A stretch of 64,000 nt of DNA from Parcubacteria group bacterium (GCA_016186325.1 JACPLW010000010.1:22856-86855); one strand, 5' to 3'; counted from the first letter of the stretch, positions 146 to 62,700 are shown. The notes: generated by a model not told the origin, from the letters alone. Numbers and translations are program-made.

Positions 146-295
146 AAAAACAATAAAAATACTTTCCGAAGCTTATGAAAGCGTTTTAGTACGGTTTCAC
201 CCCGCAGTTGCGGGGTGAATAAAATACTTTCATCGGACAGCGAGTCCCGCGCTGGCGGGACGAGCGCGCGAGGAAAGTATTTTTATTGTTTTTTT
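146..295. repeat. MITE-like structured element, family A copy 1. It has ~24-bp terminal inverted repeats and internal GTCCCGC-N4-GCGGGAC hairpins
   Basis: Left arm aaaaacaataaaaatactttcc is the reverse complement of right arm ggaaagtatttttattgttttt. Internal hairpins ccccgcagttgcgggg and gtcccgcgctggcgggac. The core is near-identical to the element at 43735-43872. Confidence 0.6.
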
Positions 296-3610: not shown

Positions 3611-3627
3611 ATCCCCATTTTGTCCCC

Positions 3628-3660
3628 AAAACTATTGATGTCGGACATCAATAGTTTTGG
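3628..3660. repeat. 31-nt perfect palindrome aaaactattgatgtc-g-gacatcaatagtttt
   Basis: Read directly. A related core (tgatgtcggacatcg) also occurs inside tsaD near 9566-9584. Confidence 0.5.
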
Positions 3661-4825: not shown

Positions 4826-4853
4826 GAACGGCACTGCCCGTTCTTTTCTTTTT
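4824..4853 (+). terminator. Rho-independent terminator
   Basis: gaacggcactgcccgttc hairpin followed by ttttcttttttt. Confidence 0.6.
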
Positions 4854-4876
4854 TATGAATGAGCTTTATGTATGTA

Positions 4877-4940
4877 GTGCGCATCCCGCCATAGCGGGAC
4901 GCCGCAAGGCATGGGAGTTCAAATCTCCCCCCGAGCACAA
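4877..4940 (+). other. tRNA-3'-half-like element E1: a GTCCCGC-type hairpin, a canonical T-arm and an acceptor 3' strand, with no D-arm
   Basis: tcccgccatagcggga hairpin, then GGGAGTTCAAATCTCCC (perfect T-arm), then CCGAGCAC-AAAA. No complementary 5' acceptor strand is present. It resembles the element at 22213-22290. Confidence 0.45.
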
Positions 4941-4946
4941 AATAAG

Positions 4947-5014
4947 AATAACCCCGCAGCTCCGACGCATACTGGTCGGAGCCCCGACTACAACGTCGGG
5001 GCTGCGGGGTTATT
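4947..5014. repeat. Family-B double-hairpin palindromic element (CTCCGAC...GTCGGAG / CCCCGAC...GTCGGGG), intergenic copy
   Basis: aataaccccgcagc[tccgacgcatactggtcgga][gccccgactacaacgtcggggc]tgcggggttatt: two hairpins nested inside an outer stem, sitting between convergent genes. Confidence 0.6.
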
Positions 5015-5468
5015 CTTCATGGTGTTTTATTTCTATCTTTTTGGTTTTGGTTCTTTCTGATTTCGGGAGTTTTATAGTGAGTACGCCGTTTTTCAGAGTA
5101 GCAATTGATTTATCGGTTTGAACGTCAACCGGCAGAATTATTGAACGGGAAAACGGTCCCCAATAACATTCCTGATAAAAATAATCATCTTTGATTACAG
5201 ACTCCTCTATTTCCCGCCGACCGCGAACGGTCACCATATCATTAGTAATAGCAATGTCTAAATTTTCCGGTTTGACTCCGGCAATGGTGGACTTTATTAC
5301 AATATCGGCGGGCGTCTGATAAACATCAATAGAGAGCTGTCCCTCTGTTTCGCCCGATTCCCAATTATTGATTTTTTCCATCTCTTCTTTTTCTTTCATA
5401 ATTTTCTTTTCGTTTTGGCCGTTATCAGAGGCATTTATCGGACCGATTAATTTTTCTAAAAAAGACAT
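5010..5468 (-). CDS. Hsp20/alpha-crystallin family small heat shock protein
   Basis: The C-terminal GVLTIKLPK and the overall alpha-crystallin domain pattern identify it. Confidence 0.75.
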   Translation of the reverse strand: MSFLEKLIGPINASDNGQNEKKIMKEKEEMEKINNWESGETEGQLSIDVYQTPADIVIKSTIAGVKPENLDIAITNDMVTVRGRREIEESVIKDDYFYQECYWGPFSRSIILPVDVQTDKSIATLKNGVLTIKLPKSERTKTKKIEIKHHEE

Positions 5469-6431: not shown

Positions 6432-8616
6432 TCATAATCGGTTTTCCCCGACGCTTTCGGTCGGGGCTCCGACCCCCGCTTTGCGGGGCGTCGGAGTTAT
6501 TCAATATTCCCCAAATTTCTTCGGTTAAAAAAGGAAGAAAGGGGTGGAGCAGTTTCAATAAATCTTCGTGGACTTTTATAAGGACTTCTTGAGTTTGCTG
6601 TCTTGCTTTTTCATCGGCAAGCTCCGACGCTTTGGTCGGAGCTCCGACTTCTTCAGAACGTCGGAGCTGTTTTTTTGCGGTTTCAATATAAATATCGGCG
6701 TATTCGTGCCAGAAAAAATCGTAAAGTTTATGAAGTGCCTGTCCAAACTCGTACTTTTCTATCCTGTTGCCGACTTCAACAATTGTTTTTTTGAGACCAC
6801 TTAAAATTTTCTTATCCGCTTCAGTTAAATTTTGATTTTTGCTTGCCCGCCGAAGCCTTGGCGTAGGCGGGATTTTTGAATTCACGTTTTGTTTTACAAA
6901 ACGCGTGGCGTTCCATATCTTATTACAGAATTTTTTGCCGGTTAACATCGCATCTTCATTAAACCGAATGTCCTGACTGCCGAGATTTTGGTACATCATA
7001 CCGAAGCGAGTAGCGTCAGCACCGTATTTTTCAATTAAATCAATCGGGTCAACACCGGTACCTCGAGATTTAGACATTATTTTACCTTCTTTATTAAGAA
7101 CCGTAGCGTGAATGTGTGTGGTGTTAAAAGGTGATTGGCCTGTAAATTCCAATCCTGAAAAAATCATTTTGGCAATCCAAATATCTCGAATATCTCTTGC
7201 TGAAGTAATAAAGTCGGTAGGATGGTATTTTTTAAGGTCGTTTGTTTTGTTGGGCCAGCCAAGTGTCGCAAAAGGCCAAAGCGCCGAAGAAAACCAAGTA
7301 TCCAAAACATCGGTTTCTCCCTCTAAAGGAATTTTGTGACCCCACCAAAGTTGGCGGGAAATATTCCAGTCCCTTTCATTTTTAAGGCGATTTAATAAAA
7401 CTTTCTCCCATTTTTGCGGGTGAATAATTGTTTTTTTCTTTTTTATTGCGTCAATTGCCAGTTTGGCAAGCTTTTCCATTTTCAAAAACCATTGCTCGGA
7501 CGGCAGAGGTTCAATGACCGAGTTACAGCGGTCGCAGCGGGCGATATTGTGCTCGTAATCTTCTATTTTTTCAATTAACCCGATGGCTTCAAGGTCTTTA
7601 ACTATTTGTTCGCGCGCTTCAGTCACTTTCATTCCCTTATAGCGCAAGCCGGCGTTCTCGTTCATTCGGCCGTGTTCATCAATTATAGTGATTGAAGGTA
7701 AGTTATGACGTTCCGCGATTTCAAAATCCGTTATATCGTGCGCCGGCGTAACCTTAATAATGCCGGTTCCAAATTCCGGGTCCACAGATTTATCTGCTAT
7801 TACCTTTATTTTAATTTTTTTGGTTTTAGCCGGCTGATTATTCGGCAAATCGTTGTCTATAGATTCTATCTCCAAATCTTTTCCCCAGTATTTTTTGTAA
7901 CGTTTGTCATTAGGGTGTACCGCTAAGGCAGTGTCGCCAAGTTTAGTTTCCGGTCTAGTCGTGGCGAGGGTGAGCGGTCCGTATTTGATAAAATAAAGTT
8001 TTGCGTGCTCCGGTATGTAGTCAACCTCTAGATCAGAGATTCCCGTGGCGCAGCGGACGCACCAATTAATAACGCGCTTGCCGCGATAAATCCAACCTTT
8101 TTTATAATAATGATTAAATGCTTCCACGACGGCTTTGGAGTAATCAGAATCCATAGTATATCTGGTTCGTGACCAGTCCGAGGATATGCCCAGCAATTTT
8201 AATTGGTCAAAAATAATATTGCCGTATTTTTCTTTCCACTCTTTAACTTTCTCAACAAATTTTTCCTGGCCTAGATCTTGGCGGCGCAAACCTTCTTTGC
8301 GAAGTTCTTTTTCAACAACATTTTGGGCAGAAATGCCGGCGTGGTCTATGCCCGGAAGCCAGAGCGTTTTAAAGCCCTTCATTCTTTTCATTCTCACCAA
8401 AATATCAACCTCGGTATTTTCCAAGACGTGGCCCATATGGAGCGAGCCGGTGATATTTGGCGGCGCCATCATCACCGAAAATTTCTTTTTTCTTTTTACG
8501 GCTTGCCCCGAAGAAGGCGGCGGCAGTTTATCAGGATTAAAAAAGCCCGATTCTTCCCAGAGCCGGTAAATTTTATCTTCAACTTCTTTTGGGTTATACG
8601 GAGAATCAAAGTTCAT
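6412..8616 (-). CDS. valS: Valyl-tRNA synthetase (class I). The C-terminal domain carries two in-frame palindromic-element insertions
   Basis: PPNITGSLHMGH (HIGH motif) and KIMSKS (KMSKS motif). Its coding sequence contains two family-B palindromic repeat copies (features at 6446-6496 and 6620-6667). Confidence 0.8.
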   Translation of the reverse strand: MNFDSPYNPKEVEDKIYRLWEESGFFNPDKLPPPSSGQAVKRKKKFSVMMAPPNITGSLHMGHVLENTEVDILVRMKRMKGFKTLWLPGIDHAGISAQNVVEKELRKEGLRRQDLGQEKFVEKVKEWKEKYGNIIFDQLKLLGISSDWSRTRYTMDSDYSKAVVEAFNHYYKKGWIYRGKRVINWCVRCATGISDLEVDYIPEHAKLYFIKYGPLTLATTRPETKLGDTALAVHPNDKRYKKYWGKDLEIESIDNDLPNNQPAKTKKIKIKVIADKSVDPEFGTGIIKVTPAHDITDFEIAERHNLPSITIIDEHGRMNENAGLRYKGMKVTEAREQIVKDLEAIGLIEKIEDYEHNIARCDRCNSVIEPLPSEQWFLKMEKLAKLAIDAIKKKKTIIHPQKWEKVLLNRLKNERDWNISRQLWWGHKIPLEGETDVLDTWFSSALWPFATLGWPNKTNDLKKYHPTDFITSARDIRDIWIAKMIFSGLEFTGQSPFNTTHIHATVLNKEGKIMSKSRGTGVDPIDLIEKYGADATRFGMMYQNLGSQDIRFNEDAMLTGKKFCNKIWNATRFVKQNVNSKIPPTPRLRRASKNQNLTEADKKILSGLKKTIVEVGNRIEKYEFGQALHKLYDFFWHEYADIYIETAKKQLRRSEEVGAPTKASELADEKARQQTQEVLIKVHEDLLKLLHPFLPFLTEEIWGILNNSDAPQSGGRSPDRKRRGKPIMIEEWPK
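6446..6496. repeat. Family-B palindromic element inserted in-frame within the valS 3' end
   Basis: ccccgacgctttcggtcggggctccgacccccgctttgcggggcgtcggag. It translates (minus strand) to ...APQSGGRSPDRKRRG.... Confidence 0.6.
6620..6667. repeat. Family-B palindromic element inserted in-frame within valS
   Basis: gctccgacgctttggtcggagctccgacttcttcagaacgtcggagc. It is nearly identical to the intergenic copy at 22435-22484 and translates to ...RRSEEVGAPTKASELAD.... Confidence 0.65.
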
Positions 8617-10019: not shown

Positions 10020-11873
10020 ATGCCTGAAGAACTTGACCGATCTGATGGGCCGATTAATGTGGAGCAACTCTTATTAGAGCTTCGCGATATTAACCTAAAA
10101 ATTCCCCATGTTAAGCCGACAGAAATTCAAGAGCAGCTTCGTGAGTCGGCGAAAAAATTGCGCGCGAAGTTAGAAGAGCTTTTTAAGAGAATTGAAAACG
10201 ATCATGAAAGGCGAGTTCATCTTACGCAGGCTTTAGAGAGGGCTTCGGCTGAAATTGAAAGACTTACGGCTCCGCCCCTTCCTTATGGTTATGTGGATCG
10301 CATTCACGATGATGGCACGATTGATGTTTTTATTAACAAGGATAATAGAAGGCGCGTTAATGTCTCTCCAGAAGTTAATGTTAAAGAATTGAAAACCGGT
10401 CAGCGGGCGCTCTTAAGTAATATAAACTACACCATTTTAGAAATTGATGAGGAATGGGAAAAGATTGGAGAAGAAGGCAAGGTCTCTGCTCTTCTAGGTG
10501 AAGACATAGTGAGAGTGGTCACTCATCTTGATGAAGTTCATGATGTAATCTTAGCCGCGCCTTTGAGAGAACAAAAAATTCGCGAAGGCGATTCCCTTCT
10601 CATTTTTGGAAATTTTGCTTTTGCTAAGTTACCCAAAGCAGAAACCGATGAGCTTCTGCTTGAAAAAGTGCCCGAAATTGGTTTCGCCCAAATCGGCGGC
10701 TTGAAAAATCAGGTTGAAATACTGCTTGAGGCCATTGAATATCCGGCGCTTTATCCGGAATTGTTCGCGCTTCATAAGCTCAAGCCGACTAAGGGCGTCT
10801 TGCTTTACGGGCCTCCCGGTTGCGGCAAAACACTTTTGGCCAAAGCCGTGGCTAACTTATTGGCGCAGAAGACGCGTAAGAAAATAGGCGATGCAAATAT
10901 CTGTGCTTATTTCATCAATATTAAAGGTCCGGAACTTCTTAATAAGTGGGTTGGCGAAACAGAGAGAAAAATCCGCGAAGTATTCCAGCGTGCCAGAGAA
11001 AAGGCGGTAGAAGGCTCCCCCGTTATTATCTTTTTTGACGAATTTGATTCTCTTTTCAGAACCCGCGGTTCGGGGATTTCTTCCGATATTGAGTCAACTG
11101 TCGTGCCACAGTTTTTATCCATGTTGGATGGCGCTGAGGAGCTTAATAATGTCATTGTTATAGGCGCCTCCAATAGGCAAGACCTAATTGATCCAGCGAT
11201 ACTGCGCCCCGGCCGTTTTGATATCAAGATTAAGGTTGACCGGCCTGATGAACTTGGCGCCAAAGAAATTCTTGGAATTTATGTTACTCCCGATTTGCCT
11301 TGGGGCGAAGATTCCGAAGGCAAGTCGTATGTTGGCCAGAAATTTCATTCGGTTGTTAACCGTTTGCATGGCAATAAACCATATAGCGTTGATTTAAGTA
11401 CGCCGGAACTAGTAGTTGAACACATGATCAAGGTTATTGTTGAATATTTGTATTATGTCGGTCCGCCGATTGCTTGGACTGACAGGCGCGGCAACCAGCA
11501 TGAATACAACACCGAATGCATTGAAATTACTTGGGCCGATGGAGAAAGGAAAATGTTATATGTTAAGGATATTTTGGTTTCCGGTGCCATGATTGAAAGC
11601 ATCGTAAATCGCGTTAAGAAAATAGCCATTAAACGCGCCGTCACTGGTAAAGGAGGCATTAAAATGGTTGATTTTTATACGGCCATAAGAGACGAAATCA
11701 AAGAAAGCAGTGACTTGCCGAATACCAATAATCCTGATGATTGGGCCAAGATCATCGGCCAGCGTTCGGAGAGCGGCCAGCGGATTGTTAATGTCCGCCC
11801 CATTATTGGGACACAGAGGGTGGCTAGTTCCCGGAGTACAGAACATGTTGTTACTACCGGCCAATATTTGTAA
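10020..11873 (+). CDS. mpa: Mpa/ARC-type AAA+ ATPase (proteasome-associated ATPase homolog) ending in the GQYL motif
   Basis: N-terminal coiled coil, Walker A GPPGCGKT, Walker B IIFFDEFD, and a C-terminal ...TTGQYL*. In actinobacterial Mpa the GQYL tail is the 20S proteasome docking motif. Confidence 0.75.
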   Translation: MPEELDRSDGPINVEQLLLELRDINLKIPHVKPTEIQEQLRESAKKLRAKLEELFKRIENDHERRVHLTQALERASAEIERLTAPPLPYGYVDRIHDDGTIDVFINKDNRRRVNVSPEVNVKELKTGQRALLSNINYTILEIDEEWEKIGEEGKVSALLGEDIVRVVTHLDEVHDVILAAPLREQKIREGDSLLIFGNFAFAKLPKAETDELLLEKVPEIGFAQIGGLKNQVEILLEAIEYPALYPELFALHKLKPTKGVLLYGPPGCGKTLLAKAVANLLAQKTRKKIGDANICAYFINIKGPELLNKWVGETERKIREVFQRAREKAVEGSPVIIFFDEFDSLFRTRGSGISSDIESTVVPQFLSMLDGAEELNNVIVIGASNRQDLIDPAILRPGRFDIKIKVDRPDELGAKEILGIYVTPDLPWGEDSEGKSYVGQKFHSVVNRLHGNKPYSVDLSTPELVVEHMIKVIVEYLYYVGPPIAWTDRRGNQHEYNTECIEITWADGERKMLYVKDILVSGAMIESIVNRVKKIAIKRAVTGKGGIKMVDFYTAIRDEIKESSDLPNTNNPDDWAKIIGQRSESGQRIVNVRPIIGTQRVASSRSTEHVVTTGQYL

Positions 11874-11962: not shown

Positions 11963-13729
11963 ATGCAGGTCCTTGTTTCAGATATCGACTATTATGATGG
12001 CTACGGAGATTTTTCAGACCTTTTTTATCGATGTTTGCCCAGACGCCGTTTTAACCGGATACGCTATGAGCTTCCTATGGTTTTTGGAAGCGAAACAGAA
12101 TTTGGTTTGACATACAGCAGGGTACTCGATAAAGAAAAGGCAAAATTTTTTCCGGTAGATTCTCCGGAGACAGTTTTTCTCCATATTATTAAGAAAGTTG
12201 CCGAAAAAACAAAAGCCTTTGCGCGCGATCCGGCATCGCCATGGTTAAGAAACGGACTAAATCATTTTGATCGGATCAGCATTGGTAAAATAACCGAAGC
12301 GGCGATTTCAGACGATATTTCCTGTCTTCCCGTTAAGCTTAAAAAAGCAGTTGAAAGAACAGGACTATCGGCTAAAGATTTTTATTTGGGAGAAACAGGA
12401 ATATTTTTAGAAGAAGGCAGCCGTCTTTACATCGACGGTCCGCATTTAGAATCGTCTATCAGTGAATGCCGGGAACCGGGCGAAGTAGTTTGTCATGAAA
12501 AAGCAATGGAGAATATTATTACCGGAGTTTTACCTGAACTGGAAAATGAGATCGGTCGTGAAATTGTTATTCTTAAGGATAATACCGATAGGCACGGCAA
12601 CAGTTATGGCTGTCATACAAACTATCTGCTTATGCTGGAATTTTTCAATCGGCTTTACGTAAAAAACGAATGGAGCGATGCTTGGTTAAGTTTTATTACC
12701 TCCGGCATAATTGTTACCGGCAGCGGTAAGGTCGGCTATGAATGCTATAGCGAGCCGTGCGACTACCAAATTTCTCAAAGAGCCGATCATTTTATGAGAA
12801 TTTTAGGCAGCGGTACGATGTATTTTCGTCCGCTTATCAACTTTAGAGACGAACCGTTGGCCGACAGAGCGAAATACGGCCGTTTTCATGTAATTTTAGA
12901 TGATTCCAATATGGCCGAATGGTCCATTTATCTTAAAATTGGCACTAAAGCGCTGGTTTTAAATATGCTTCAGCATCAATTTTTCGAAGGTGGAAAAACT
13001 ATCAAGTATAAAGAGCTTTTTATAGATAATCCGATTGAATCTCTAAAATTCATTTCCAGGGATTTGACGTGTAAGAAGAAAGTCCTGTTAGCGGACGGCA
13101 GTGAAAAATCAGCTCTTGAAATTCAAGAGGAATGGCTAAGTATTGTTGAAGATTTTTATTCAGGTTCTGATTCTTATCCTTTTTGGATTTCGGATGTTAT
13201 AGCAAAATGGAAATTAACTCTACGGTGGATTAGAGATGATGATGACAATCTTGATTCGGTTTTGGACTGGCGGATTAAACTTTCCCTCATCAAAGGTATA
13301 AAAGAAAAATATGCCAAAAGAGGAATAACTCTTGATTGGCGAGATGGTCGGATTAAAGATTTAGACTGCCTTTACCATAGTTTGGGTCCCAAAGGTCTTT
13401 ACAATTGCGCTTTAAAAGCGGGTCACATTGAAAGAATTGTAACAGATGAACAAATTGAAATAGCTAAAACTGAGCCACCCGAAAACACCAGAGCATGGCT
13501 GCGCGGCCGGTTTATAAGGCACTTTTTGCCACATCTTGTCGATGCCAGCTGGGAGCTCCTGTCTTTTTATATTAAAATCGGTGATTTTGAAACATTGGTG
13601 TCGCTTAAGATGGACCCGCTCTGCAGTACGCGCCATAAGGTGGGCGAGTTGTTTACAGAAACAGACAGTTATGAAAGTTTTTGCAAGAGGTTTCTTTCCA
13701 TGTATTTAAGTGGTAGGAGTCTTTTTTAA
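11963..13729 (+). CDS. Pup ligase/deamidase family protein (PafA/Dop homolog 1; longer form, possibly Dop-like)
   Basis: FGSETEFG (the GIETEYG-like N-terminal motif), GNSYGCHTNYLL, SQRADHF, RPLINFRDEPLADRAKYGRFHVILDDSNMAEWSIYLKIGTKALVL, LYHSLGPKG and PPENTRAWLRGRFI all match conserved PafA/Dop blocks. Strong SD aggag upstream. Confidence 0.75.
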   Translation: MQVLVSDIDYYDGYGDFSDLFYRCLPRRRFNRIRYELPMVFGSETEFGLTYSRVLDKEKAKFFPVDSPETVFLHIIKKVAEKTKAFARDPASPWLRNGLNHFDRISIGKITEAAISDDISCLPVKLKKAVERTGLSAKDFYLGETGIFLEEGSRLYIDGPHLESSISECREPGEVVCHEKAMENIITGVLPELENEIGREIVILKDNTDRHGNSYGCHTNYLLMLEFFNRLYVKNEWSDAWLSFITSGIIVTGSGKVGYECYSEPCDYQISQRADHFMRILGSGTMYFRPLINFRDEPLADRAKYGRFHVILDDSNMAEWSIYLKIGTKALVLNMLQHQFFEGGKTIKYKELFIDNPIESLKFISRDLTCKKKVLLADGSEKSALEIQEEWLSIVEDFYSGSDSYPFWISDVIAKWKLTLRWIRDDDDNLDSVLDWRIKLSLIKGIKEKYAKRGITLDWRDGRIKDLDCLYHSLGPKGLYNCALKAGHIERIVTDEQIEIAKTEPPENTRAWLRGRFIRHFLPHLVDASWELLSFYIKIGDFETLVSLKMDPLCSTRHKVGELFTETDSYESFCKRFLSMYLSGRSLF

Positions 13730-13863: not shown

Positions 13864-15360
13864 ATGAGAGATCGAGTCATGGGAGGCGAAATCGAATGGC
13901 TTGGTAACTTTAGGCCCAATCCTAACTGCCGATGGCAGGAAGCCGGGAACCTGTTTGAATCAATTAAAGCATTTCTTTGCAAAAAATATAGTATTAACAA
14001 TTCTGGAGAGTTATTTCTTCCAAACGGCTCTCGTTTTTACCATGAGTCAACGGGTAATCATATTGAGACCACGACCCCCGAATGTGGAAGCGCAAGAGAT
14101 GTCTTAAAATACGAAAAATGGCAAGAGCGCTTTATGTGCCGACTTTCAAAAGAACTGAAGGACAGTCTGGGAGAATTCGTGTTTCAAAAAAAGAACAGCA
14201 GTGATAATTTAGCCGATACCCGCGGCTCTCATGAGAGTTATTTGTCCGATAAAATGTTTAGTGATTTACTGAGTTCTGCTCAAGCAAGATTATATTCTAT
14301 GCCCCCCACTATGGACCCGCGGCTTAATTATCTTATTCTGTTTTTAATAACACGTCAGATTTTTACCGGTAGCGGCGGCGGCATTTTAAGCTGCCAAGAC
14401 AACAGTCGCAACGATTATGTAATTTCTCCTAGGGCTTATTTCATTGAGACGATTTTTAGCTCTTCATCAACCAGCTCGCGGCCGATTATTCACATTCGCA
14501 AAGAAGCGTTAGCCGATGACTCCAAATATTGGCGCAATCATTTTATTTTAGGCGATGCTAATATGGCCGACCTTTCAATCTTTCTTAAATTCGGAACGAC
14601 AAGCGCCGTTTTGGAGATGATCGAGGAAGGTTTTTACGATAAGACATTGAATATGTTTGATCCTCGTGAAGCTGCCAATCTATTTAAAAAAATCTCCGGC
14701 GATTTAACCCTGCGAAACGTGCCAATTCGTTTGGTGGGTGGCGGAGATGAAGGTGTTATAGGAATCCAAAAACGATTCTGCCAAGATTTCAAAAGATACC
14801 TCGGCTATTCCGGTCAAGGCGGAGAAAAATTAGAAATTGCGCAAAGATGGTGGGAGATTTTGGAATGCCTGCAAGGGGACGATGAAAAAGTTTATCGGGA
14901 GTTAGATTACAAGATTAAGTTTAGGCTTTTAAATGACTATATGACGGCAAGGGGTCTTTCTCTTTCTGATAACAAGGTTAGGATGCTCGATCTTGACTAC
15001 CACAGTTCGGATCCGAAAAAAAGCTTTTATTACTTGTTAAAGAATCGTCCGAGTTCTAAATTTGAAAGTTTGGTGAGTGAAAGTAAAATTTTGGAAAGAG
15101 GGGGCCTACCTCCAAATACCAGGGCTAAGTTAAGAGCTCAAATTCAATTGCTTCTTGAAGAATTAGACATGTCTTATAGTTTAAATTGGGATTTGGTGTC
15201 GTTCAAACCCATTGGTTCAGATGTACCTGAAAGAAAATTACACTTACCAGAACCGCGCGTTTCATCATTTGACGGTCTAAATTTTGAAAAAAACTATGAT
15301 GCCATAGATTATCTAAACTCTTTAAAGCCCGGCGCTATTAAAATTCGTAAAGCCCCCTAG
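13864..15360 (+). CDS. Pup ligase/deamidase family protein (PafA/Dop homolog 2; divergent)
   Basis: MGGEIEW, RPIIHIRKEALADDSKYWRNHFILGDANMADLSIFLKFGTTSAVLEMIEEG, LDLDYHSSDP and PPNTRAKLRAQ. Same family as the preceding gene, but the GNSYGCHENY block is replaced by RGSHESYL. Confidence 0.7.
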   Translation: MRDRVMGGEIEWLGNFRPNPNCRWQEAGNLFESIKAFLCKKYSINNSGELFLPNGSRFYHESTGNHIETTTPECGSARDVLKYEKWQERFMCRLSKELKDSLGEFVFQKKNSSDNLADTRGSHESYLSDKMFSDLLSSAQARLYSMPPTMDPRLNYLILFLITRQIFTGSGGGILSCQDNSRNDYVISPRAYFIETIFSSSSTSSRPIIHIRKEALADDSKYWRNHFILGDANMADLSIFLKFGTTSAVLEMIEEGFYDKTLNMFDPREAANLFKKISGDLTLRNVPIRLVGGGDEGVIGIQKRFCQDFKRYLGYSGQGGEKLEIAQRWWEILECLQGDDEKVYRELDYKIKFRLLNDYMTARGLSLSDNKVRMLDLDYHSSDPKKSFYYLLKNRPSSKFESLVSESKILERGGLPPNTRAKLRAQIQLLLEELDMSYSLNWDLVSFKPIGSDVPERKLHLPEPRVSSFDGLNFEKNYDAIDYLNSLKPGAIKIRKAP

Positions 15361-22212: not shown

Positions 22213-22290
22213 TTTTGCGTTCTCGGAGGGATTCGAACCTCCAATAATCCCGCCAAGGCGGGATCGTGATACTCGCCCGCCCAAACTTTT
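22213..22290 (-). other. tRNA-3'-half-like element E2 (hairpin tcccgccttggcggga, T-arm GGAGGTTCGAATCCCTCC, acceptor 3' strand)
   Basis: No D-arm or matching 5' acceptor strand could be found. The architecture is shared with E1 at 4877-4940. Confidence 0.4.
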
Positions 22291-22291
22291 G

Positions 22292-22365
22292 CGCGCCCTG
22301 AGGGATTCGAACCCCCGACCCCTTGTTCCGAAGACAAGTGCTCTAATCCGCTGAGCTAAGGGCGC
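22292..22365 (-). tRNA. tRNA-Arg (anticodon TCG), flanked by a 19-bp perfect inverted repeat that extends the acceptor stem
   Basis: Minus-strand GCGCCCTTAGCTCAGCGGATTAGAGCACTTGTCTTCGGAACAAGGGGTCGGGGGTTCGAATCCCTCAGGGCGCG. The flanks cccgcccaaacttttgcgc and gcgcaaaagtttgggcggg are exact reverse complements. Confidence 0.75.
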
Positions 22366-22434
22366 AAAAGTTTGGGCGGGTCAATTTCACCACGAGGACA
22401 AAAACCTGTTGCCGCAGGTGACCGTTCTGTCCAA

Positions 22435-40630: not shown

Positions 40631-41134
40631 ATGGCAGAGAAACAAAAAAATTATAGAACTCGAGACAAAACCACCGGTCGTGCAGGTTTTAAGAGAGAAA
40701 AATCCGAATTTGAACAAAAGGTTATTGATATTAGAAGAGTTACTCGTGTTGTGGCCGGAGGCAAACGGTTTCGCTTTCGGGCAACCGTAGTTTTGGGTGA
40801 TCACAAGGGGCGGGTAGGCGTCGGTGTTGATAAAGGGACCGACACTTCCGAATCTATTGAGAAAGCGGCGAGATCGGCCAAGAAAAATTTAATTACGGTT
40901 TCAATTAAAAATGGCACCATTTCCCATGAAACAATAGGAAGGTTTTCAAGCGCCGTCGTGCTTTTAAAACCGGCCAAAGCCGGAAGAGGTATTATTGCCG
41001 GCGGGCCGGTTAGAATTATCGCGAGTCTTTCGGGGATTAGTAGTATTTCATCAAAGATTCTTGGAACGACTACCAATAAGCTGAATAATGCCAGGGCTAC
41101 AATAGAGGCGTTAAGGAAACTAAAATCAAGATAA
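40631..41134 (+). CDS. rpsE: 30S ribosomal protein S5
   Basis: RVTRVVAGGKRFRFRATVVLGD. Confidence 0.9.
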   Translation: MAEKQKNYRTRDKTTGRAGFKREKSEFEQKVIDIRRVTRVVAGGKRFRFRATVVLGDHKGRVGVGVDKGTDTSESIEKAARSAKKNLITVSIKNGTISHETIGRFSSAVVLLKPAKAGRGIIAGGPVRIIASLSGISSISSKILGTTTNKLNNARATIEALRKLKSR

Positions 41135-41226
41135 ATTTCTAATTTCTAATTTTTAATAAATTTCTAATGACTTAATTTTTAAACATTAAAACATTAAATC
41201 ATTTAATAAAAATTGAAAATTAGAAA

Positions 41227-41682
41227 TTGAAAATTATTATTATGCAACTACACAATATAAAACCAAAAAACAAATTAAAAAAACCCAGAAGAATAGCCAG
41301 AGGAGGCAAAAGAGGCGGTTATTCGGGTCGCGGCATTAAGGGCCAGAAATCCAGAGCCGGTGCCGGAATTAGGCCGGCTATTCGCGATGTAATGATGAGG
41401 TTTCCAAAACAGCGCGGCCGCGCTAAGCACTCCTTTAAGAGTATATTTCTAAAACCGGTCGTTTTAAATCTATTTGACATTGATAAAAAATTTAAAGACG
41501 GAGAAATTGTCAACCCGGTCAGTCTTGTTGGTAAAAAATTAGTTTATAAAATAAGCGGTCGGTTTCCAAAGATTAAGATTTTGGGTACAGGTGAAATTTC
41601 TAAAAGATTAAATTTTCAAGAAGTTTTATTGTCGTCATCGGCGCGTGATAAAGTTAAGAAAGCGGGAGGCACCATAAAATGA
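41227..41682 (+). CDS. rplO: 50S ribosomal protein L15 (follows S5 directly; no L30 gene)
   Basis: L15-like sequence. The S5-L15 intergenic region holds only AT-rich heptamer repeats. Confidence 0.8.
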   Translation: MKIIIMQLHNIKPKNKLKKPRRIARGGKRGGYSGRGIKGQKSRAGAGIRPAIRDVMMRFPKQRGRAKHSFKSIFLKPVVLNLFDIDKKFKDGEIVNPVSLVGKKLVYKISGRFPKIKILGTGEISKRLNFQEVLLSSSARDKVKKAGGTIK

Positions 41683-42950
41683 TAGAAAAAATCGTACAAA
41701 TTTTTAAAATAAAAGATTTAAGAAACCGCATACTTTTTGTTTTATCGCTTCTTGTTGTTTTTCGCCTTATGGCTACTATTCCCGTTCCGGGCGTTGATGT
41801 TTTGCGTTTGAGGGAATTTTTTGAAGGAAATCAGTTTTTCGGATTGCTCAACATCTTTTCCGGCGGCGCTCTATCCAACCTTTCAATTGTGATGCTCGGC
41901 GTTGGTCCCTTTATCACCGCTTCAATTATTATGCAGCTTTTGACTATGCTTATCCCGGCCTTGAAAGAACTATATAATGAAGAAGGAGAAATGGGCCGTC
42001 AAAAATTCAATCAATACACGCGATATTTATCCGTTCCTTTGGCCGTTCTTCAGGGTTATGGCCTTCTGGTTCTCTTAAAGAACCAACAAATTATCGCAAG
42101 CGGAAATTCTCTTATGTTTTTTTCGTCGGTTTTTGTAGTCACGGCCGGTTCAATATTTTTAATGTGGCTTGGCGAACTTATAACCGAAAAAAAAGTCGGA
42201 AACGGCATTTCACTTATGATTTTTGCCGGTATTGTCGCCAGTTTGCCTGTTGATTTAAAGCAGACGTTAGCAACTTTTGATCCTTCACAGGTTCCTACTT
42301 ATCTTGCTTTTATTTTAGTATCAATTGTTGTTATTGCCGGAGTAGTGGTAGTTACCGAAGGGGAAAGGCCGATTCCGGTGGCTTATGCCAAGAGAGTGCG
42401 CGGTAACAGAGTTTATGGCGGCTCTATGGCGCATTTGCCTTTGAGGGTAAATCAAGCCGGCGTTATTCCCATTATTTTTGCCCTTTCAATTTTACTTTTC
42501 CCACAGCTAATTGCCCAGATCTTATCGGGTTTTAATATTGCTTGGATAAGAGAGCTATCTCTTCTTCTTGTTGGTTTTCTTAATAACCAGGCGGTTTACG
42601 GTTCATTTTATTTTATTTTGGTAATTTTGTTCACTTATTTTTATACTGCCGTTACTTTTGATCCCGGCCAGATTTCTCAAAATCTTCAAAAACAAGGCGG
42701 ATTTATTCCTGGAATAAGGCCGGGCGGTTCTACTGCCGGATATTTAAAACATATCTTAAATCGGGTAGTTTTAATTGGCGCCATCTTTTTAGGAGTTATC
42801 GCGGTCTTGCCTATTTCGGTCCAATATTTTACCGGCATAACGACTTTAACGGTCGGCGGCACTTCGCTTTTAATTGTTGTTTCGGTGGTTCTTGAAACAA
42901 TGAAGCAGGTTAGGTCGCAGCTTGTAATGAGAGAATATGAAAGTTTTTAA
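41679..42950 (+). CDS. secY: Preprotein translocase subunit SecY
   Basis: 10-TM protein of 423 aa in the canonical position after L15. Confidence 0.9.
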   Translation: MIEKIVQIFKIKDLRNRILFVLSLLVVFRLMATIPVPGVDVLRLREFFEGNQFFGLLNIFSGGALSNLSIVMLGVGPFITASIIMQLLTMLIPALKELYNEEGEMGRQKFNQYTRYLSVPLAVLQGYGLLVLLKNQQIIASGNSLMFFSSVFVVTAGSIFLMWLGELITEKKVGNGISLMIFAGIVASLPVDLKQTLATFDPSQVPTYLAFILVSIVVIAGVVVVTEGERPIPVAYAKRVRGNRVYGGSMAHLPLRVNQAGVIPIIFALSILLFPQLIAQILSGFNIAWIRELSLLLVGFLNNQAVYGSFYFILVILFTYFYTAVTFDPGQISQNLQKQGGFIPGIRPGGSTAGYLKHILNRVVLIGAIFLGVIAVLPISVQYFTGITTLTVGGTSLLIVVSVVLETMKQVRSQLVMREYESF

Positions 42951-43097
42951 TAATGATTTTATATTTTATTCTCTTGCTTTCCTCGTCCCGCCCCAGCGAG
43001 CGGGACTCGGGGATTCGCGCTCGCTCGTCCCGCCAAGGCGGGACACCATGCCCGCTTCGCGCTCATAACCCGCTCGAGAATAAAATATAAAATCATT
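42951..43097. repeat. MITE-like structured element, family A copy 2. It exactly fills the secY-adk intergenic gap
   Basis: Terminal inverted repeats taatgattttatattttattctc and gagaataaaatataaaatcatta. Internal hairpins gtcccgccccagcgagcgggac and gtcccgccaaggcgggac. Confidence 0.6.
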
Positions 43098-43104
43098 ATC
43101 TGTA

Positions 43105-43731
43105 ATGGGTATATCTAAAAAATTAATTGCAATTATTTTACTTGGAAGGCCGGGTTCCGGCAAAGACACTCAAGCCAAACTTTTAGCAAAAAAGTTCGGC
43201 TTGGTTCATCTTATTTCAAGCAAACTCATTGAAGAATCTTTAAAATCTAAAGCAAAAATTATTAAACGCGATAGCAGGGCTTACAATGTGGAAAAAGAGC
43301 GCCGTATTCAAAAAAGCGGTTATTTAAATACCTCTGCTTTTGTGGCAGCTCTGGTAAAAGACGAAATTAAAAAAATCGCGCAGAAAGGTTTTGGATTGGT
43401 AATGAGCGGTTCTCCCAGAACTTTAAGAGAGTTTAAAGAAGAGGCGCCGATGCTTTTAAAACTTTACGGTAAAAATAATATTTATTTTTTTCATATTATA
43501 ATCAGTCCGAATGAGGTTTATATAAGGAATCTGAAACGCCACCGCAAAGATTTGCCCGAACTTGATTCAAGGAAAATAATTAAAAAACGGCTTGAAGTTT
43601 ACAGTCGCGACACCCTTCCGCTTATCAAGTATTTGAAATCTCAAAAAAGAGTCGCGGATATAAACGGCGAACAGTCAATAATGAAAATTCATTTGGATAT
43701 TTTGAAAGTTTTAATGCCGAAAGTAAAATAA
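43105..43731 (+). CDS. adk: Adenylate kinase-like protein (divergent)
   Basis: P-loop GRPGSGKDTQ and its position after secY. Confidence 0.6.
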   Translation: MGISKKLIAIILLGRPGSGKDTQAKLLAKKFGLVHLISSKLIEESLKSKAKIIKRDSRAYNVEKERRIQKSGYLNTSAFVAALVKDEIKKIAQKGFGLVMSGSPRTLREFKEEAPMLLKLYGKNNIYFFHIIISPNEVYIRNLKRHRKDLPELDSRKIIKKRLEVYSRDTLPLIKYLKSQKRVADINGEQSIMKIHLDILKVLMPKVK

Positions 43732-43734
43732 AAA

Positions 43735-43872
43735 ATAGTAAATTTATTTTCTGAAGCTTATGAAGCCATTTTAGCATGGTTACCCGCTAAGCGGGGATAA
43801 AATGAGCTTCATCGGACAGTGAGTCCCGCGCTGGCGGGACGAACGCGCGAAGAAAATAATTTTACTATTTTT
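43735..43872. repeat. MITE-like structured element, family A copy 3
   Basis: Terminal inverted repeats atagtaaatttattttct and agaaaataattttactat. The core ttcatcggacagtgagtcccgcgctggcgggacgaacgcgcga is near-identical to copy 1 (146-295). Hairpin 1 shows compensatory changes (cccgctaagcgggg against ccccgcagttgcgggg). Confidence 0.6.
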
Positions 43873-43895
43873 TATTAAATATCTAAAATAATAGG

Positions 43896-44660
43896 ATGAT
43901 AACAATCAAAACAAAAGAAGAAATAGAAGTTTTAAAAGAAGGCGGGAAAATTTTGGCCGAGGTTTTAAGAGAACTGGCGAAACTTGCTAAACCCAGTGTT
44001 AGCACGGGCTTTTTGGATAAAAAAGCCCAAGAGATGATTTTAGCTCGAGGCGGAGAACCGGCTTTTTTAAATTATCATCCGAATTTTATGGACAGGCCCT
44101 ATCCGGCCGCCCTTTGTGCTTCGCTTAATGAAGTGGTGGTTCACGGCTTGCCTAGTGAAAAAAACATTTTAAAAGAAGGCGATATTTTAAAACTAGATCT
44201 TGGCATCAAATACAAAAATCTTTTTACCGACGCGGCTATTACGGTTGGAATAGGGGAACTTATGGAAGAAAAGCAAAAACTCATTGATGTTACCAAACGA
44301 GCGCTGGGGCTGGCAATAAACGAAGTGAAACCGGGAAATCATATTGGCGATATTGGATTTGCGATTGAAAATTACGTTGAAAGCAATGGTTTTTATGTTA
44401 TAGAAATTTTGGTCGGCCATGGCGTCGGCCATGCCATTCATGAAGAGCCAAATGTTCCTAATTACGGAAAAAAAGGCCAGGGGCCAGAGCTGAGAGCAGG
44501 CATGGTTATAGCAATTGAACCGATGGTCGCATTAAAAGGTAAAGATGTTAAATTATCCAAAGACGGTTTCGGCTACGAGACGCTCGGTGGCTCTCTTTCC
44601 GCCCATTTTGAACATTCGGTGGCGGTTACAGAGGAGGGAAACATAGTTTTGACACGGTAA
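43896..44660 (+). CDS. map: Methionine aminopeptidase type I
   Basis: Pita-bread fold motifs and its position after adk. Confidence 0.8.
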   Translation: MITIKTKEEIEVLKEGGKILAEVLRELAKLAKPSVSTGFLDKKAQEMILARGGEPAFLNYHPNFMDRPYPAALCASLNEVVVHGLPSEKNILKEGDILKLDLGIKYKNLFTDAAITVGIGELMEEKQKLIDVTKRALGLAINEVKPGNHIGDIGFAIENYVESNGFYVIEILVGHGVGHAIHEEPNVPNYGKKGQGPELRAGMVIAIEPMVALKGKDVKLSKDGFGYETLGGSLSAHFEHSVAVTEEGNIVLTR

Positions 44661-44773
44661 AATGGCTTTTTGAAGCCAAATATATGTTGATGTCGCCAAT
44701 ATCTATTGCTTTGCAATACAATGTGTGTTATAATTTTATTAGTTTAGAGAAACAGGGCAAGGAGGAACTTCAC

Positions 44774-44965
44774 ATGGAGTGGTTTATCAGGTTCTGCAGT
44801 TGGTTTTATGGCTTCCCTTTTTGGAAGCCATGTCCGGTGTGCGGGAACAGAAGGCGTTATCTTGTTCTCGCAGAGTCATGCGATTCATTTGCACTTTTCT
44901 CTCGCTGCAAGAACTGTGCGCGCGTGATCATCAATGTATCGAAAAAAAAAATTGTAAAAGATTAA
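44774..44965 (+). CDS. Small zinc-ribbon hypothetical protein (63 aa)
   Basis: CPVCGN...CKNCAR, preceded by aaggagg and an extended -10 tgtgttataat. Confidence 0.35.
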   Translation: MEWFIRFCSWFYGFPFWKPCPVCGNRRRYLVLAESCDSFALFSRCKNCARVIINVSKKKIVKD

Positions 44966-45147
44966 AGATAAGTATGGGGACATGTGTGAAAGCAATTTCG
45001 CCATGTCCCAATTTTTATATAAAAGTTCATTTTCTGTATTTCAGTACTCATCAGTGTATCATAAGCTTCCTATAGGTAAGTTGTGATGCGAGATATAAGA
45101 TATAAAAATAGTAGAAAATAATATTTTGATATGATATTTATAATGTA

Positions 45148-45585
45148 ATGAAGATTTTAGCTATTGATTACGGGAAAAAATGGATTGGGCTGGCGATTTC
45201 TGACGATGGGCGCCGGCTGGCTTTTGCTTATAAAACCTTGGAAAATAATTCCAAAACTTTTTCTGTTTTAAATGAAATAATAAAAAAAGAAGAAATTTAT
45301 AAAATAGTTATTGGCTTGCCTTTGAATAAAGAGATGAAACCGACGCAACAAACAACTGAAACGGAAAACTGGGCGCAAGAACTTATTAAAAAAGTTGCAA
45401 CTCCGACGCCTTTGGGTCGGAGCCCCGACCGGAACTCCGACGGTACCGTCGGAGAAAGCGTCGGGGTTGATTTTGAAAATGAAATTTTTACAAGCAAGGC
45501 GGCGGATAAACTCGGAGTAAAAAACCAGCACGCCGCCGCCGCCGCAATTTTTCTTCAGGATTATTTGGATAGAAATAACAAATAA
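45148..45585 (+). CDS. ruvX: Holliday-junction-resolvase-like protein RuvX/YqgF, with an in-frame family-B palindromic insertion
   Basis: MKILAIDYGKKWIGLAISD N-terminal RNase-H-like motif. The internal segment ...PTPLGRSPDRNSDGTVGESVGV... is encoded by the repeat at 45401-45466. Confidence 0.7.
   Translation: MKILAIDYGKKWIGLAISDDGRRLAFAYKTLENNSKTFSVLNEIIKKEEIYKIVIGLPLNKEMKPTQQTTETENWAQELIKKVATPTPLGRSPDRNSDGTVGESVGVDFENEIFTSKAADKLGVKNQHAAAAAIFLQDYLDRNNK
45401..45466. repeat. Family-B palindromic element (nested hairpins) inserted in-frame in ruvX
   Basis: ctccgacgcctttgggtcggag ccccgacc ggaa ctccgacggtaccgtcggag aaag cgtcgggg. Confidence 0.6.
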
Positions 45586-45587
45586 AT

Positions 45588-45743
45588 TATTAAAATTTAA
45601 TATCTTTGTTCTCACGCTTTTCTCGGTTGCCCCAGCGAGGCAACCGAGAGGATTCGCCCTCGCTCTGTCCCGCAAAGCGGGACAACCGTGCCCGCTCGGG
45701 CTCATAACCCCGCTTTGAAAACAAAGATATTAAATTTTAATAA
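45588..45743. repeat. MITE-like structured element, family A copy 4
   Basis: Terminal inverted repeats ttattaaaatttaatatctttgtt and aacaaagatattaaattttaataa. Internal ggttgccccagcgaggcaacc and gtcccgcaaagcgggac. The core is similar to copy 2. Confidence 0.6.
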
Positions 45744-45747
45744 AAGA

Positions 45748-45925
45748 ATTAAGTCCGCCTGTATCATTTCGAGGAACTCTCGGAGCTCTGCGAGCTGGTA
45801 TTGCCAGAAATTTATTTCTGGCAATTTTGGTCTCGCCGCAGGCGAGTCGCAGAGCGAGAGTGAATGCGCTTCGCCGCTGGAGCGAAGCGACATGTTTCCG
45901 AGAAATGATATAGGCGGACAAAAGA
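45748..45925. repeat. Second composite palindromic element with 18-bp terminal inverted repeats
   Basis: gtccgcctgtatcatttc and gaaatgatataggcggac at the ends. Internal hairpins ttgccagaaatttatttctggcaa, tctcgccgcaggcgag.. and cgcttcgccgctggagcgaagcg. Confidence 0.5.
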
Positions 45926-50128: not shown

Positions 50129-50272
50129 CTACTATTGATTCTGAGAATCAATAGTAGGCGCGCTTAAATGAGTCATATTTTTGTAGCTATAGCGAATATT
50201 GACATTTAAGTAATAACTTGTTACCATTTTATGGTAAAAAGAGAGACTTTCTGACAAACAGGAGAGGAAGAA

Positions 50273-50615: not shown

Positions 50616-50703
50616 AATAATTTATTTATTTTTTTAGTTCAAGGACAAATAAATTAACTAAATATGGCTTTTGAAAGCCATATTTAGTTACTATTAAGAA
50701 CTA

Positions 50704-62001: not shown

Positions 62002-62700
62002 TTAGCTCTCCACTAAAAGATGTTCCATATCTTTTCTTTCGAGCATTATCTTTAAGGCATCTTCCGCGAAATCTTTATATTCCGCGATGGTTTTAAATTG
62101 TGAAATGATAATTTCTTTACCGCAAAGTTCTCTTCCATTTTTATCTTTTTTCTTCTTCATATACTCCTCCCAACTCGACTTGGAGACGCCGTCACCAAGT
62201 CGATGGACACGATTATTAAGATTCACATATGCGCTTACGTTCAGAAGATATTCGTTGGAGTCAACATGAACTGCTTTAAATGGACCTTGGAATAAAGAAC
62301 CGGAACGCTGACATTTTACATTGAAATATCTAGCATACCCAAGACATAATCTATGCATAAATTTTTCTATTCCTTTATCGGCGATTTGTCTCATTAAGAA
62401 GTGGTAATGATTTGGATTGAGGCAATAGCATACAAATTCCACTAACTTGGTGACGCCGTCACCAAGTTGAGATTCGCGCTTCCTAAATGAATTTTCAAAT
62501 ATACTTCCTATCGGTTCAACGGTATTGAACTCCTCCATACTTTGCAAGAATCTGGCATAATCTCGTGCGTCCATGAAAATTTGGCGTTTATCCACGCCTC
62601 GGCCGAAAATATGATAATACTCATCATTTACTAGTAATACTTTTCTCATACATCTTATTATACCACTTGGTGACGCCGTCACCAAGTATTTTTTCACCAT
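62002..62700 (-). CDS. REP-associated tyrosine transposase (RAYT; IS200-like Y1 HuH transposase) that carries three copies of its REP palindrome in-frame
   Basis: HuH motif NPNHYHFLM and a catalytic-Tyr region YVNLNNRVH (YxxxNP-like). The segments KYLVTASPSG, QLGDGVTKLV and RLGDGVSKSS are encoded by the palindrome copies. Confidence 0.6.
   Translation of the reverse strand: MVKKYLVTASPSGIIRCMRKVLLVNDEYYHIFGRGVDKRQIFMDARDYARFLQSMEEFNTVEPIGSIFENSFRKRESQLGDGVTKLVEFVCYCLNPNHYHFLMRQIADKGIEKFMHRLCLGYARYFNVKCQRSGSLFQGPFKAVHVDSNEYLLNVSAYVNLNNRVHRLGDGVSKSSWEEYMKKKKDKNGRELCGKEIIISQFKTIAEYKDFAEDALKIMLERKDMEHLLVES

Follow-up and report, generated by a model that had tools for sequence, protein, structure and literature searches.

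Patescibacteria have very small, tightly packed genomes, which are thought to hold little repetitive or mobile DNA. Among bacterial repeats, REPINs and the IS200/IS605-derived palindromic elements form hairpins in a strand-specific manner, make no target duplication, retain their pairing through compensatory changes and persist over long times. The Correia elements of Neisseria (CREE or NEMIS) are about 105–155 bp long, with inverted repeats of about 24–26 bp around a characteristic core (PMC2649163, PMC2229807), and RNase III has been reported to bind and sometimes to cleave them in transcripts (PMC2649163). ERIC, RPE, RUP and YPAL are small A+T-rich or palindromic intergenic repeats, whose stem-loops in transcripts can alter the stability of the neighboring mRNA in an orientation-dependent manner (PMC2229807). 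In mitochondria, hairpin elements and GC clusters are described as GC-rich hairpin modules that invade the A+T-rich spacers of compact genomes (PMC2800124). The elements analyzed here are closest in kind to the small structured intergenic repeats (Correia/NEMIS, ERIC, RPE and REPIN). They lie in 64,000 nt of DNA from a Parcubacteria group bacterium (GCA_016186325.1 JACPLW010000010.1:22856-86855), which is referred to as the window and from the start of which coordinates are counted, and they belong to a superfamily of 140–170-bp non-coding insertions in Patescibacteria, with subtypes A, B and C, that is apparently undescribed. With about even confidence, we interpret them as non-autonomous mobile structured elements whose transcript would form a duplex of the RNase III type.

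The first-pass annotation placed four structured elements in intergenic gaps of the window, and all four were recovered at those places by reading the sequence. Each consists of near-perfect inverted arms enclosing a GC-rich core of about 100 nt; inverted arms had been correctly recognized, and their length, given as 18–25 bp, was measured as 24–28 nt. By a rough estimate, a perfect 24-nt inverted repeat with such spacing is expected about 5e-8 times by chance in 64 kb. The folding z-scores of the four elements relative to shuffled sequences are −8 to −11 on either strand. Copy 1 (type A, 140-299) has arms at 140-167 and 272-299 that are 28 nt long and 100% complementary according to the repeat finder. 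Copy 2 (type B, 42950-43099) has 24-nt arms at 42950-42973 and 43076-43099, which are also 100% complementary. The arms of copy 3 (type A, 43727-43876) are 26 nt long and 96% complementary (43727-43752 and 43851-43876), and those of copy 4 (type B, 45587-45743) are 28 nt long, 96% complementary and match the type-B consensus arms (45587-45614 and 45716-45743). The neighboring genes proposed earlier agree with the Pfam matches: Clp protease and methyltransferase for copy 1, SecY and ADK for copy 2, ADK and Peptidase_M24 (methionine aminopeptidase, map) for copy 3, and RuvX and GT2 for copy 4. In all four copies the start of the left arm coincides with the stop codon of the preceding gene or falls within it; the clpP stop codon (143-145) lies within the arm of copy 1, and copy 4 directly follows the ruvX stop codon on its 3' side.

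The fold of the elements is conserved through compensatory change. An alignment of 53 distinct type-A copies, A3, folded with RNAalifold, gives a three-way junction composed of the P1 arms, a 2-bp G-C clamp, P3 and P2. P1 is an almost perfect, A+T-rich closing stem of 20–31 bp, with a mean arm length of 24.5 nt and 93% Watson-Crick pairs. P3 has 14 bp, an asymmetric GCAUGGU bulge and, at its apex, the variable hairpin P3b, while P2 consists of 2 bp, a tandem G·A, a stem of 6–7 bp and a GCUG loop. In copy 1, these parts correspond to J1 (GAAGCTT, 168-174), P3 (175-189 with 218-233) with its bulge at about 190-197 and the P3b hairpin at 198-217, J2 (CGGACA, 234-239), P2 (240-265) and J3 (GCGCGA, 266-271), where P2 contains 2 bp, the tandem GA and GTCCCGC-GCTG-GCGGGAC at 244-261. 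The P2 hairpin of copy 3 is at 43823-43840.

Compensatory changes occur in 34 of the 50 pairs of the consensus. The fraction of paired cells is 97.3%, compared with 78.7% in shuffled alignments (reached in 0 of 500) and 42–47% when the pairing partners are slid, where the cells do not count as separate events because the copies are related. The covariation score is 0.488, against 0.146 for shuffled and 0.04–0.11 for slid partners. The 2-bp step below the tandem G·A covaries cleanly as GC/GC, AU/AU, AC/GU and GU/AC. The single-stranded positions are almost invariant: 22 unpaired core columns that the search pattern left free are mostly 89–100% conserved, with columns 82 and 103 as exceptions. 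Among these conserved positions are the two G·A steps, GC..GA, the bulge GCAUGGU and the loop GCUG. The elements thus carry the signature of a structured RNA, although correction of palindromes at the DNA level could contribute to the covariation. The structural selection proposed from the window alone, on the basis of compensatory changes between copies 1 and 3, reaches far beyond the four window copies, and those changes themselves are genuine (ATGAAAGCG/..CTTTCAT in one and ATGAAGCCA/..GCTTCAT in the other). The fold is as strictly conserved as that of a riboswitch and spans classes of the phylum.

The feature that had been taken as the hallmark of the elements, a GTCCCGC hairpin with an N4 loop, is not itself the conserved part. 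GTCCCGC-N4-GCGGGAC occurs exactly in copies 1, 2 and 3, with a one-mismatch match at 4883 and none in 100 shuffles, but in copy 4 the loop has 3 nt (GTCCCGC AAA GCGGGAC), and in other genomes the helix reads GGTCGCC, GCCTCGC, GGCCGCC or AATTCGCC. What is truly conserved near the P2 stem of type-A copies is the GCUG loop and the flanking tandem GA. CCCGC-type stems are ordinary GC hairpins here and also occur in plain hairpins of the window genome. As a separate observation, the intergenic stretch 4850-5020 holds several GC hairpins (4883-4900; 4944-5017) and a T-arm-like GGGAGTTCAAATCTCCCC, and neither ARAGORN nor Rfam called a gene in it.

The hairpins of some type-A copies are further elaborated, with extra small GC hairpins in J3 or P3 (GCCCCGTATAACAACAAGTTGTATACGGGGC; CCTGCCTACCGCAGGCAGG) or a much longer P3b. 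Such copies were seen at 2242-2417 of L133, 145-327 of L169 and 7606-7773 (minus strand) of L177, as well as in L142 and L149, where L numbers (L003 to L229) denote related loci from other genomes and metagenomes. Hairpin modules seem to accrete inside the elements. A four-codon mini-open reading frame in type A (ATG AAA GCG TTT TAG) was considered and rejected; its TAG is often TGG, and no ribosome-binding site accompanies it.

The first-pass annotation had separated copies 1 and 3 from copies 2 and 4 by their cores. The sharing within each pair was borne out; the two core types are not separate families and form one superfamily lying on opposite strands. Compared by eye, the reverse complement of A has several features of B: ACCRUGC after a hairpin, the string UCAUAA, and CCAGCG in the loop of a hairpin. 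R1, a covariance model derived only from type-A copies and with rough E-values, scored copies 1 and 3 at 136 and 143 bits on the plus strand and about 20 bits on the minus strand, whereas copies 2 and 4 scored 41.8 and 41.1 bits on the minus strand and about 19–20 bits on the plus strand. The match on the opposite strand indicates that B is homologous to A and inverted in the window. The hairpins of copy 2 are at 42985-43006, with CCAGCG in the loop, and 43027-43044, and those of copy 4 at 45625-45645 (GGTTGCC-CCAGCGA-GGCAACC) and 45667-45683. Seven type-B copies show the same covariation of P1 and of the hairpins as type A, and AGCGAGS of type B may pair with SCUCGCU of its P2-like loop.

A fifth element, of subtype C and absent from the earlier description, lies on the plus strand at 45753-45920 and begins 9 bp past copy 4. 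Its arms (45753-45770 and 45903-45920; GTCCGCCTGTATCATTTC / GAAATGATATAGGCGGAC) are 18 nt long and GC-richer, its core reads GAACTCTCGGAGC...GCGAGAGTGAATGCGC..CGCCGCTGGAGCG..GACATGTTTCCGA, and an AT hairpin is nested inside the element at 45800-45825. This core is common to the window, L126 and L179, and the L126 copy scored 52 bits with R1.

The fold is selected on one particular strand. In the core helices of type A, G·U pairs outnumber A·C mismatches by 37 to 8 on the forward strand (p = 1.5e-5, for events that are not independent). When the copies are divided by their orientation relative to the neighboring genes, the ratio is 9:2 for sense, 20:4 for antisense and 8:2 for mixed copies. Since the excess is the same in sense and antisense copies, it is a property of the element and not of host transcription, and a transcription-coupled mutation bias was rejected as its source. 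In type B, the arm mismatches on the B+ strand comprise 0 G·T and 7 A·C, which indicates the opposite strand, in agreement with R1. The selected strand in the window is plus for copies 1 and 3 and subtype C, and minus for copies 2 and 4; copy 2 is antisense to both secY and adk.

The proposal of the first-pass annotation depended on copies beyond the four, and these exist. A scan of metagenomes for type A, anchored on two single-stranded/P3 motifs (GAAGCTTATGAA ... TTCATCGGACA) that together fix 23 nt, yielded 107 loci, mostly from groundwater (among the sources are Hainich and the SRR121134xx runs), containing 84 distinct elements. R1 also matched loci titled Saccharibacteria (L053 with 81 bits, L039 with 55 and L003 with 34), L097 (72 bits) and L007, an unclassified metagenome-assembled genome (38 bits). 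The Saccharibacteria copies, which were reached by another route, also have the bulge GGCAUGGU, a GCUG loop and, beside P2, the tandem G·A. A scan of the genome collection with the bare hairpin (TCGTCCCGCCANNGCGGGAC) was set aside; the matches listed were mostly noise from GC-rich genomes, and the useful ones were Saccharibacteria-like loci and an Azambacteria metagenome-assembled genome, L070, in which, among the matches listed for this generic hairpin, three elements lie within 8 kb. In viral contigs, the type-A pattern gave no match and the generic pattern one unrelated hairpin, and the 3.5 kb beyond the end of the window held no new copy.

In 124 kb of DNA that was unselected for the presence of elements, 10 copies were counted (5 in the window, 0 in L122, 4 in L124 and 1 in L126), which corresponds to about one copy per 12 kb. 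Patescibacteria are commonly regarded as poor in repeats and mobile DNA, yet the elements are dense in their compact genomes. With Rfam 15, tRNAs were the only window features to reach gathering scores; for copies 1 and 2, no match at E <= 10 was reported as a family, the best chance matches having E = 0.5–7, and at E <= 0.01 nothing overlapped the elements in L053, L097, L124, L126 and L070. Derivation from 5S rRNA or tRNA, suggested by a CCAUGCC-like string and the three-way shape, was rejected because neither Rfam model matches on either strand. No description of such elements in Patescibacteria was found in the literature outside subscription journals, and one may exist elsewhere.

The same gene junctions are filled in some relatives and empty, or occupied by another subtype, in others, which indicates that the elements are insertions; they occur in both orientations. 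The claim that repeated structured elements fill intergenic gaps is confirmed. At secY/adk, the window has a type-B copy and L159 a type-A copy, whereas in L145, L173, L122, L124 and L126 the junction is empty and the genes overlap. At adk/map, type A is present in the window and in L145 (3243-3388, orthologous to copy 3), type B in L124 and subtype C in L126, and the site is empty in L122. At ruvX/GT2, type A is found in L176 and L124, B together with C in the window and another hairpin element in L145, while L122 and L126 are empty. L122 is the closest relative (Adk 80% identical); its adk and map overlap as ATGA, and no element was found in its 20 kb. The secY and adk genes overlap by 14 nt in three relatives; the elements thus sit tightly between essential genes whose relatives' counterparts overlap.

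The flanks of L145, which is empty at secY/adk, and L159, which carries type A, are 91–94% identical. As the alignment of this junction shows, the insert comprises the arms, the core and about 20–27 nt that provide a new start codon for adk, the former ATG having decayed to ACG in L159, and no target duplication is present. Further filled/empty pairs were found at 90–93% flank identity. The elements lie at or over stop codons and leave the genes undisrupted; at type-A sites, the arm begins mostly from about −16 to +12 nt of a stop codon. The insertions account for odd intergenic gaps and shifted start codons in the annotations of these genomes. Apart from the elements, about 480 bp of the window (44660-45148) separate map and ruvX, which are neighbors in L122, and this stretch holds a 93-aa open reading frame (44684-44965) that has no Pfam match.

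Once resident, the copies are maintained in place, and their single-stranded nucleotides are more constant than the neighboring coding DNA. In 11 orthologous pairs with flanks 70–92% identical, the unpaired core is 96–98% identical (the search pattern itself had set 13 of its 33 columns) and the paired core 71–84%, and P1 is 70–89% identical with its pairing retained. The upstream gene at one site ends within the arm; its final codons vary between lineages (..NDKE*, ..NDSK*, ..NDNK*), and the non-coding arm mirrors each variant. This mirroring indicates either selection on each resident copy or re-perfecting of inverted repeats at the DNA level. The latter process is known, as quasipalindromes are corrected by template switching during replication (PMC7202029).

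Perfect palindromes are frequent in these genomes, with 66 distinct examples of at least 14 nt per arm in 861 kb of related DNA. Core-less A+T palindromes with similar outer arms occur at two sites that hold a type-A element in sister lineages (L177 compared with L173, and L206 compared with L215 and L217), and may be remnants of core loss or pre-existing targets of insertion. These two orthologous sites favor arms that pre-existed as a host palindrome, against which stand palindrome-free empty sites and the arm consensus shared between loci. Short-loop perfect palindromes with 14–25 nt per arm are found, for example, at 3626-3660, 50129-50157 and 50655-50690 of the window, 4842-4891 of L177 and 11246-11281 of L206. 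An A+T-rich imperfect palindrome at 41134-41235, has 50-nt arms that are 76% complementary and no GC core; it occupies the place of rpmD in other bacteria, flanked by genes that synteny suggests are rpsE (S5) and rplO (L15). Between 61961 and 62687, a 23-nt palindrome, ACTTGGTGACGCCGTCACCAAGT, occurs four times (61961, 62178, 62445 and 62665), spaced by about 217–267 nt and overlapping a minus-strand open reading frame (62002-62700).

The interpretation that we favor combines mobility with a role in transcripts. The elements would spread as non-autonomous mobile DNA through a strand-specific single-stranded form, either RNA or single-stranded DNA, which would be recognized through the invariant junction and loop nucleotides rather than by a DDE transposase acting on termini. 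In a transcript crossing a copy in either orientation, P1 would form a near-perfect duplex of 20–31 bp, the type of substrate that RNase III uses, and the element might then serve as processing or stability punctuation between cistrons, by analogy with the Correia elements in Neisseria. Open reading frames with the RNase III signature (NERLEFLGDA) are present in the related loci L167, L175, L181, L201 and L229. In these same loci a type-A element (9402-9550 in L167, with orthologues in the other four) lies between a 163-aa gene and rnc, 25 bp before the rnc start codon with a TATAAT box between them; one arm takes in the last five codons of the upstream gene, and where these vary the opposite arm varies to match. 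Long stems also enclose stable RNAs: a window tRNA (22292-22365, minus strand) is enclosed by an inverted repeat of 19–29 nt (22266-22294 and 22362-22390), and a 5S rRNA gene in L068 (4825-4970), identified by eye, by 21-nt arms. These genomes seem to place such stems around stable RNAs habitually.

Several observations weigh against this interpretation. Between co-directional genes, the selected strand of type A is antisense in 22 cases and sense in 5 (p = 0.0015), where genes were called crudely as the longest non-overlapping open reading frames and the sites are partly related; of the other type-A sites, eight lie between convergent genes and one between divergent genes. The antisense excess means that the selected strand would often be outside the operon mRNA. 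It suggests that RNA of the canonical strand has an additional orientation-dependent effect that would be counterselected in operons, or else that insertion is oriented. The abundance of palindromes, together with template switching, implies that part of the covariation of the arms could arise without selection on RNA, and the core-less palindromes at element sites leave it in doubt that the arms arrived with the core. The 23 type-A nucleotides fixed by the search pattern and the relatedness of the copies, which are not independent samples, reduce the weight of the conservation. Finally, the analysis defined neither a mobilizing enzyme nor a target motif, nor the exact ends of the element.

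A more radical account of the mobility, which we put forward only tentatively, dispenses with an encoded protein. The element would be a structured RNA or single-stranded DNA that propagates itself, and the junction would be its active part, for example a new ribozyme or a recognition module for an unrecognized reverse transcriptase or HUH enzyme. Without duplicating its target, the element would enter at stop codons, and the host would retain it as a signal for operon processing.

Alternatively, each element could be a host gene encoding a small stable RNA, about 100 nt in size, that would be released by RNase III and would act in trans or bind a protein through the GCAUGGU bulge and the GCUG loop; the copies would then be gene duplicates. 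Invariant single-stranded nucleotides combined with freely covarying helices are the pattern of a functional RNA, and conservation in place above that of flanking coding DNA, homologues across classes of the phylum and flanking stems resembling those at the tRNA and 5S rRNA are all as expected from such genes. However, presence and absence shift among close relatives, with L122 lacking any copy in its 20 kb, and different subtypes occupy the same junction. The selected strand is mostly antisense to the surrounding operon, copies occur in tandem (copy 4 with subtype C) and with nested hairpins, and no conserved promoter was found upstream: promoter and terminator scans gave matches at about the noise level, none of them consistent. 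This explanation is therefore considered unlikely.

Mobilization as single-stranded DNA, in the manner of palindromic elements such as REPINs or IS200/IS605-derived elements, would require an HUH/Y1 enzyme encoded elsewhere and would make the RNA structure incidental. It accords with the absence of target-site duplications and of conserved termini, with a strand-specific fold that is independent of the orientation of the host genes, and with the conserved hairpin loops and the orientation bias relative to neighboring genes. The end hairpins of REP and IS608 elements are conserved in sequence within a genome, whereas the hairpin stems of the present elements vary freely. Both orientations occur within one 3-kb co-directional gene run of the window, which excludes a strict replication-strand rule there, and no HUH/Y1 enzyme turned up in the related DNA, in which no systematic search for one was made. 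Taken together, these points make such a mechanism quite improbable.

The elements were first labeled MITE-like, and the defining tests of MITEs (miniature inverted-repeat transposable elements) failed. Classical MITEs are deletion derivatives of insertion sequences, moved by a DDE transposase acting on their terminal inverted repeats. The present elements resemble them in being small, non-coding and multi-copy, with A+T-rich inverted arms, no open reading frame, filled and empty sites and an arm consensus across loci, which match the bacterial MITE properties tabulated in PMC2229807. On the other hand, direct repeats at 74 distinct copies are no longer than those of shuffled flank pairs, and alignments of filled and empty sites show no duplication. 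TA stands at the start of the arm in 8 of the 74 copies, compared with a dinucleotide background of 13%. Conservation is lowest at the outermost bases of the arms, whose length differs among copies (20–31 nt). The inner 16–20 nt of the arms are common to many loci while the outer ends are locus-specific, which is the reverse of a terminus bound by a transposase. The earlier statement that arms differ between copies is correct for these outer ends only; the arms are not unrelated across the family, as many type-A loci share ..AATAAATAAATTATTTTCC / GGAAAATGATTTATTTATT... No longer copy with type-A ends more than 200 bp apart, as expected of a parent element, was found in 1.7 Mb of related DNA, and a core conserved like a functional RNA is unexpected for a MITE. 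We therefore regard a classical MITE as very improbable.

Terminators, like processing sites and small RNAs, were among the putative roles named in the first-pass annotation. Elaborated intrinsic terminators or insulators, in which an A-tract/GC-hairpin/T-tract unit like the plain bidirectional terminators of these genomes has had its apical hairpin enlarged to a three-way junction, are likewise highly unlikely. In their favor, the related loci hold many plain hairpins built as AATAATAATAAAACCCCGCT-TTG-AGCGGGGTTTTATTATTATT, in either orientation the 5' arms are rich in A and the 3' arms in T, and eight type-A sites lie between convergent genes. Against them, the majority of copies are found within conserved operons, for example secY-adk-map, in which termination would do harm; the T-rich tract lies within the stem with GGAAAA between it and the GC structure, and a consensus terminator scan called no terminator-like site at any of the four elements.

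Apart from the subject of the elements, genes of the Pup-proteasome type are present in the window genome (10020-15360). One encodes an AAA ATPase that has proteasomal OB domains (10020-11873); the other two (11963-13729 and 13864-15360) encode members of the Pup-ligase family.

The interpretation as mobile structured elements can be placed among the known systems. If the conserved fold acts as an RNA, the elements constitute a new and abundant RNA family, and if it is a handle for mobilization, it points to an unrecognized route of transposition. The Correia elements are alike in being intergenic and multi-copy in either orientation, with no open reading frame and no known mobilizing enzyme, and the stem of their repeats in mRNA binds RNase III, being cut or protected (PMC2649163, PMC2229807). 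They differ in having conserved terminal repeats, TA ends and a target duplication, all of which the Patescibacteria elements lack. Their core is a DNA motif (an IHF site), in contrast to the three-way junction found here, which covaries and has invariant loops; the sequences show no similarity, and the Correia elements belong to another phylum. ERIC, RPE, RUP and YPAL share the small intergenic size and would share transcripts with long stem-loops, but they are defined by a sequence consensus over the whole element, usually with target-site duplication, and covariation of the riboswitch kind and cross-class homologues are unreported for them.

REPINs share the hairpins, the strand specificity, the lack of target duplication and pairing kept by compensatory change. 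A REPIN consists of two inverted copies of one short conserved REP, whereas the core of the Patescibacteria elements is single and asymmetric, with three different helices whose stems are not conserved in sequence. The RNase III stems of rRNA and tRNA precursors are similar as long duplexes flanking a structured RNA, a design also seen at the window tRNA and the L068 5S rRNA gene, and the difference is that the fold enclosed here matches no Rfam family in the copies and loci searched. The mitochondrial GC clusters likewise place GC-rich hairpins in the A+T-rich spacers of compact genomes; they are organellar, much simpler and without a conserved multi-helix junction. The Patescibacteria elements are thus set apart from these systems by the failure of the MITE tests, by the lack of an Rfam match and by a core that resembles a functional RNA and extends across the classes of Patescibacteria.

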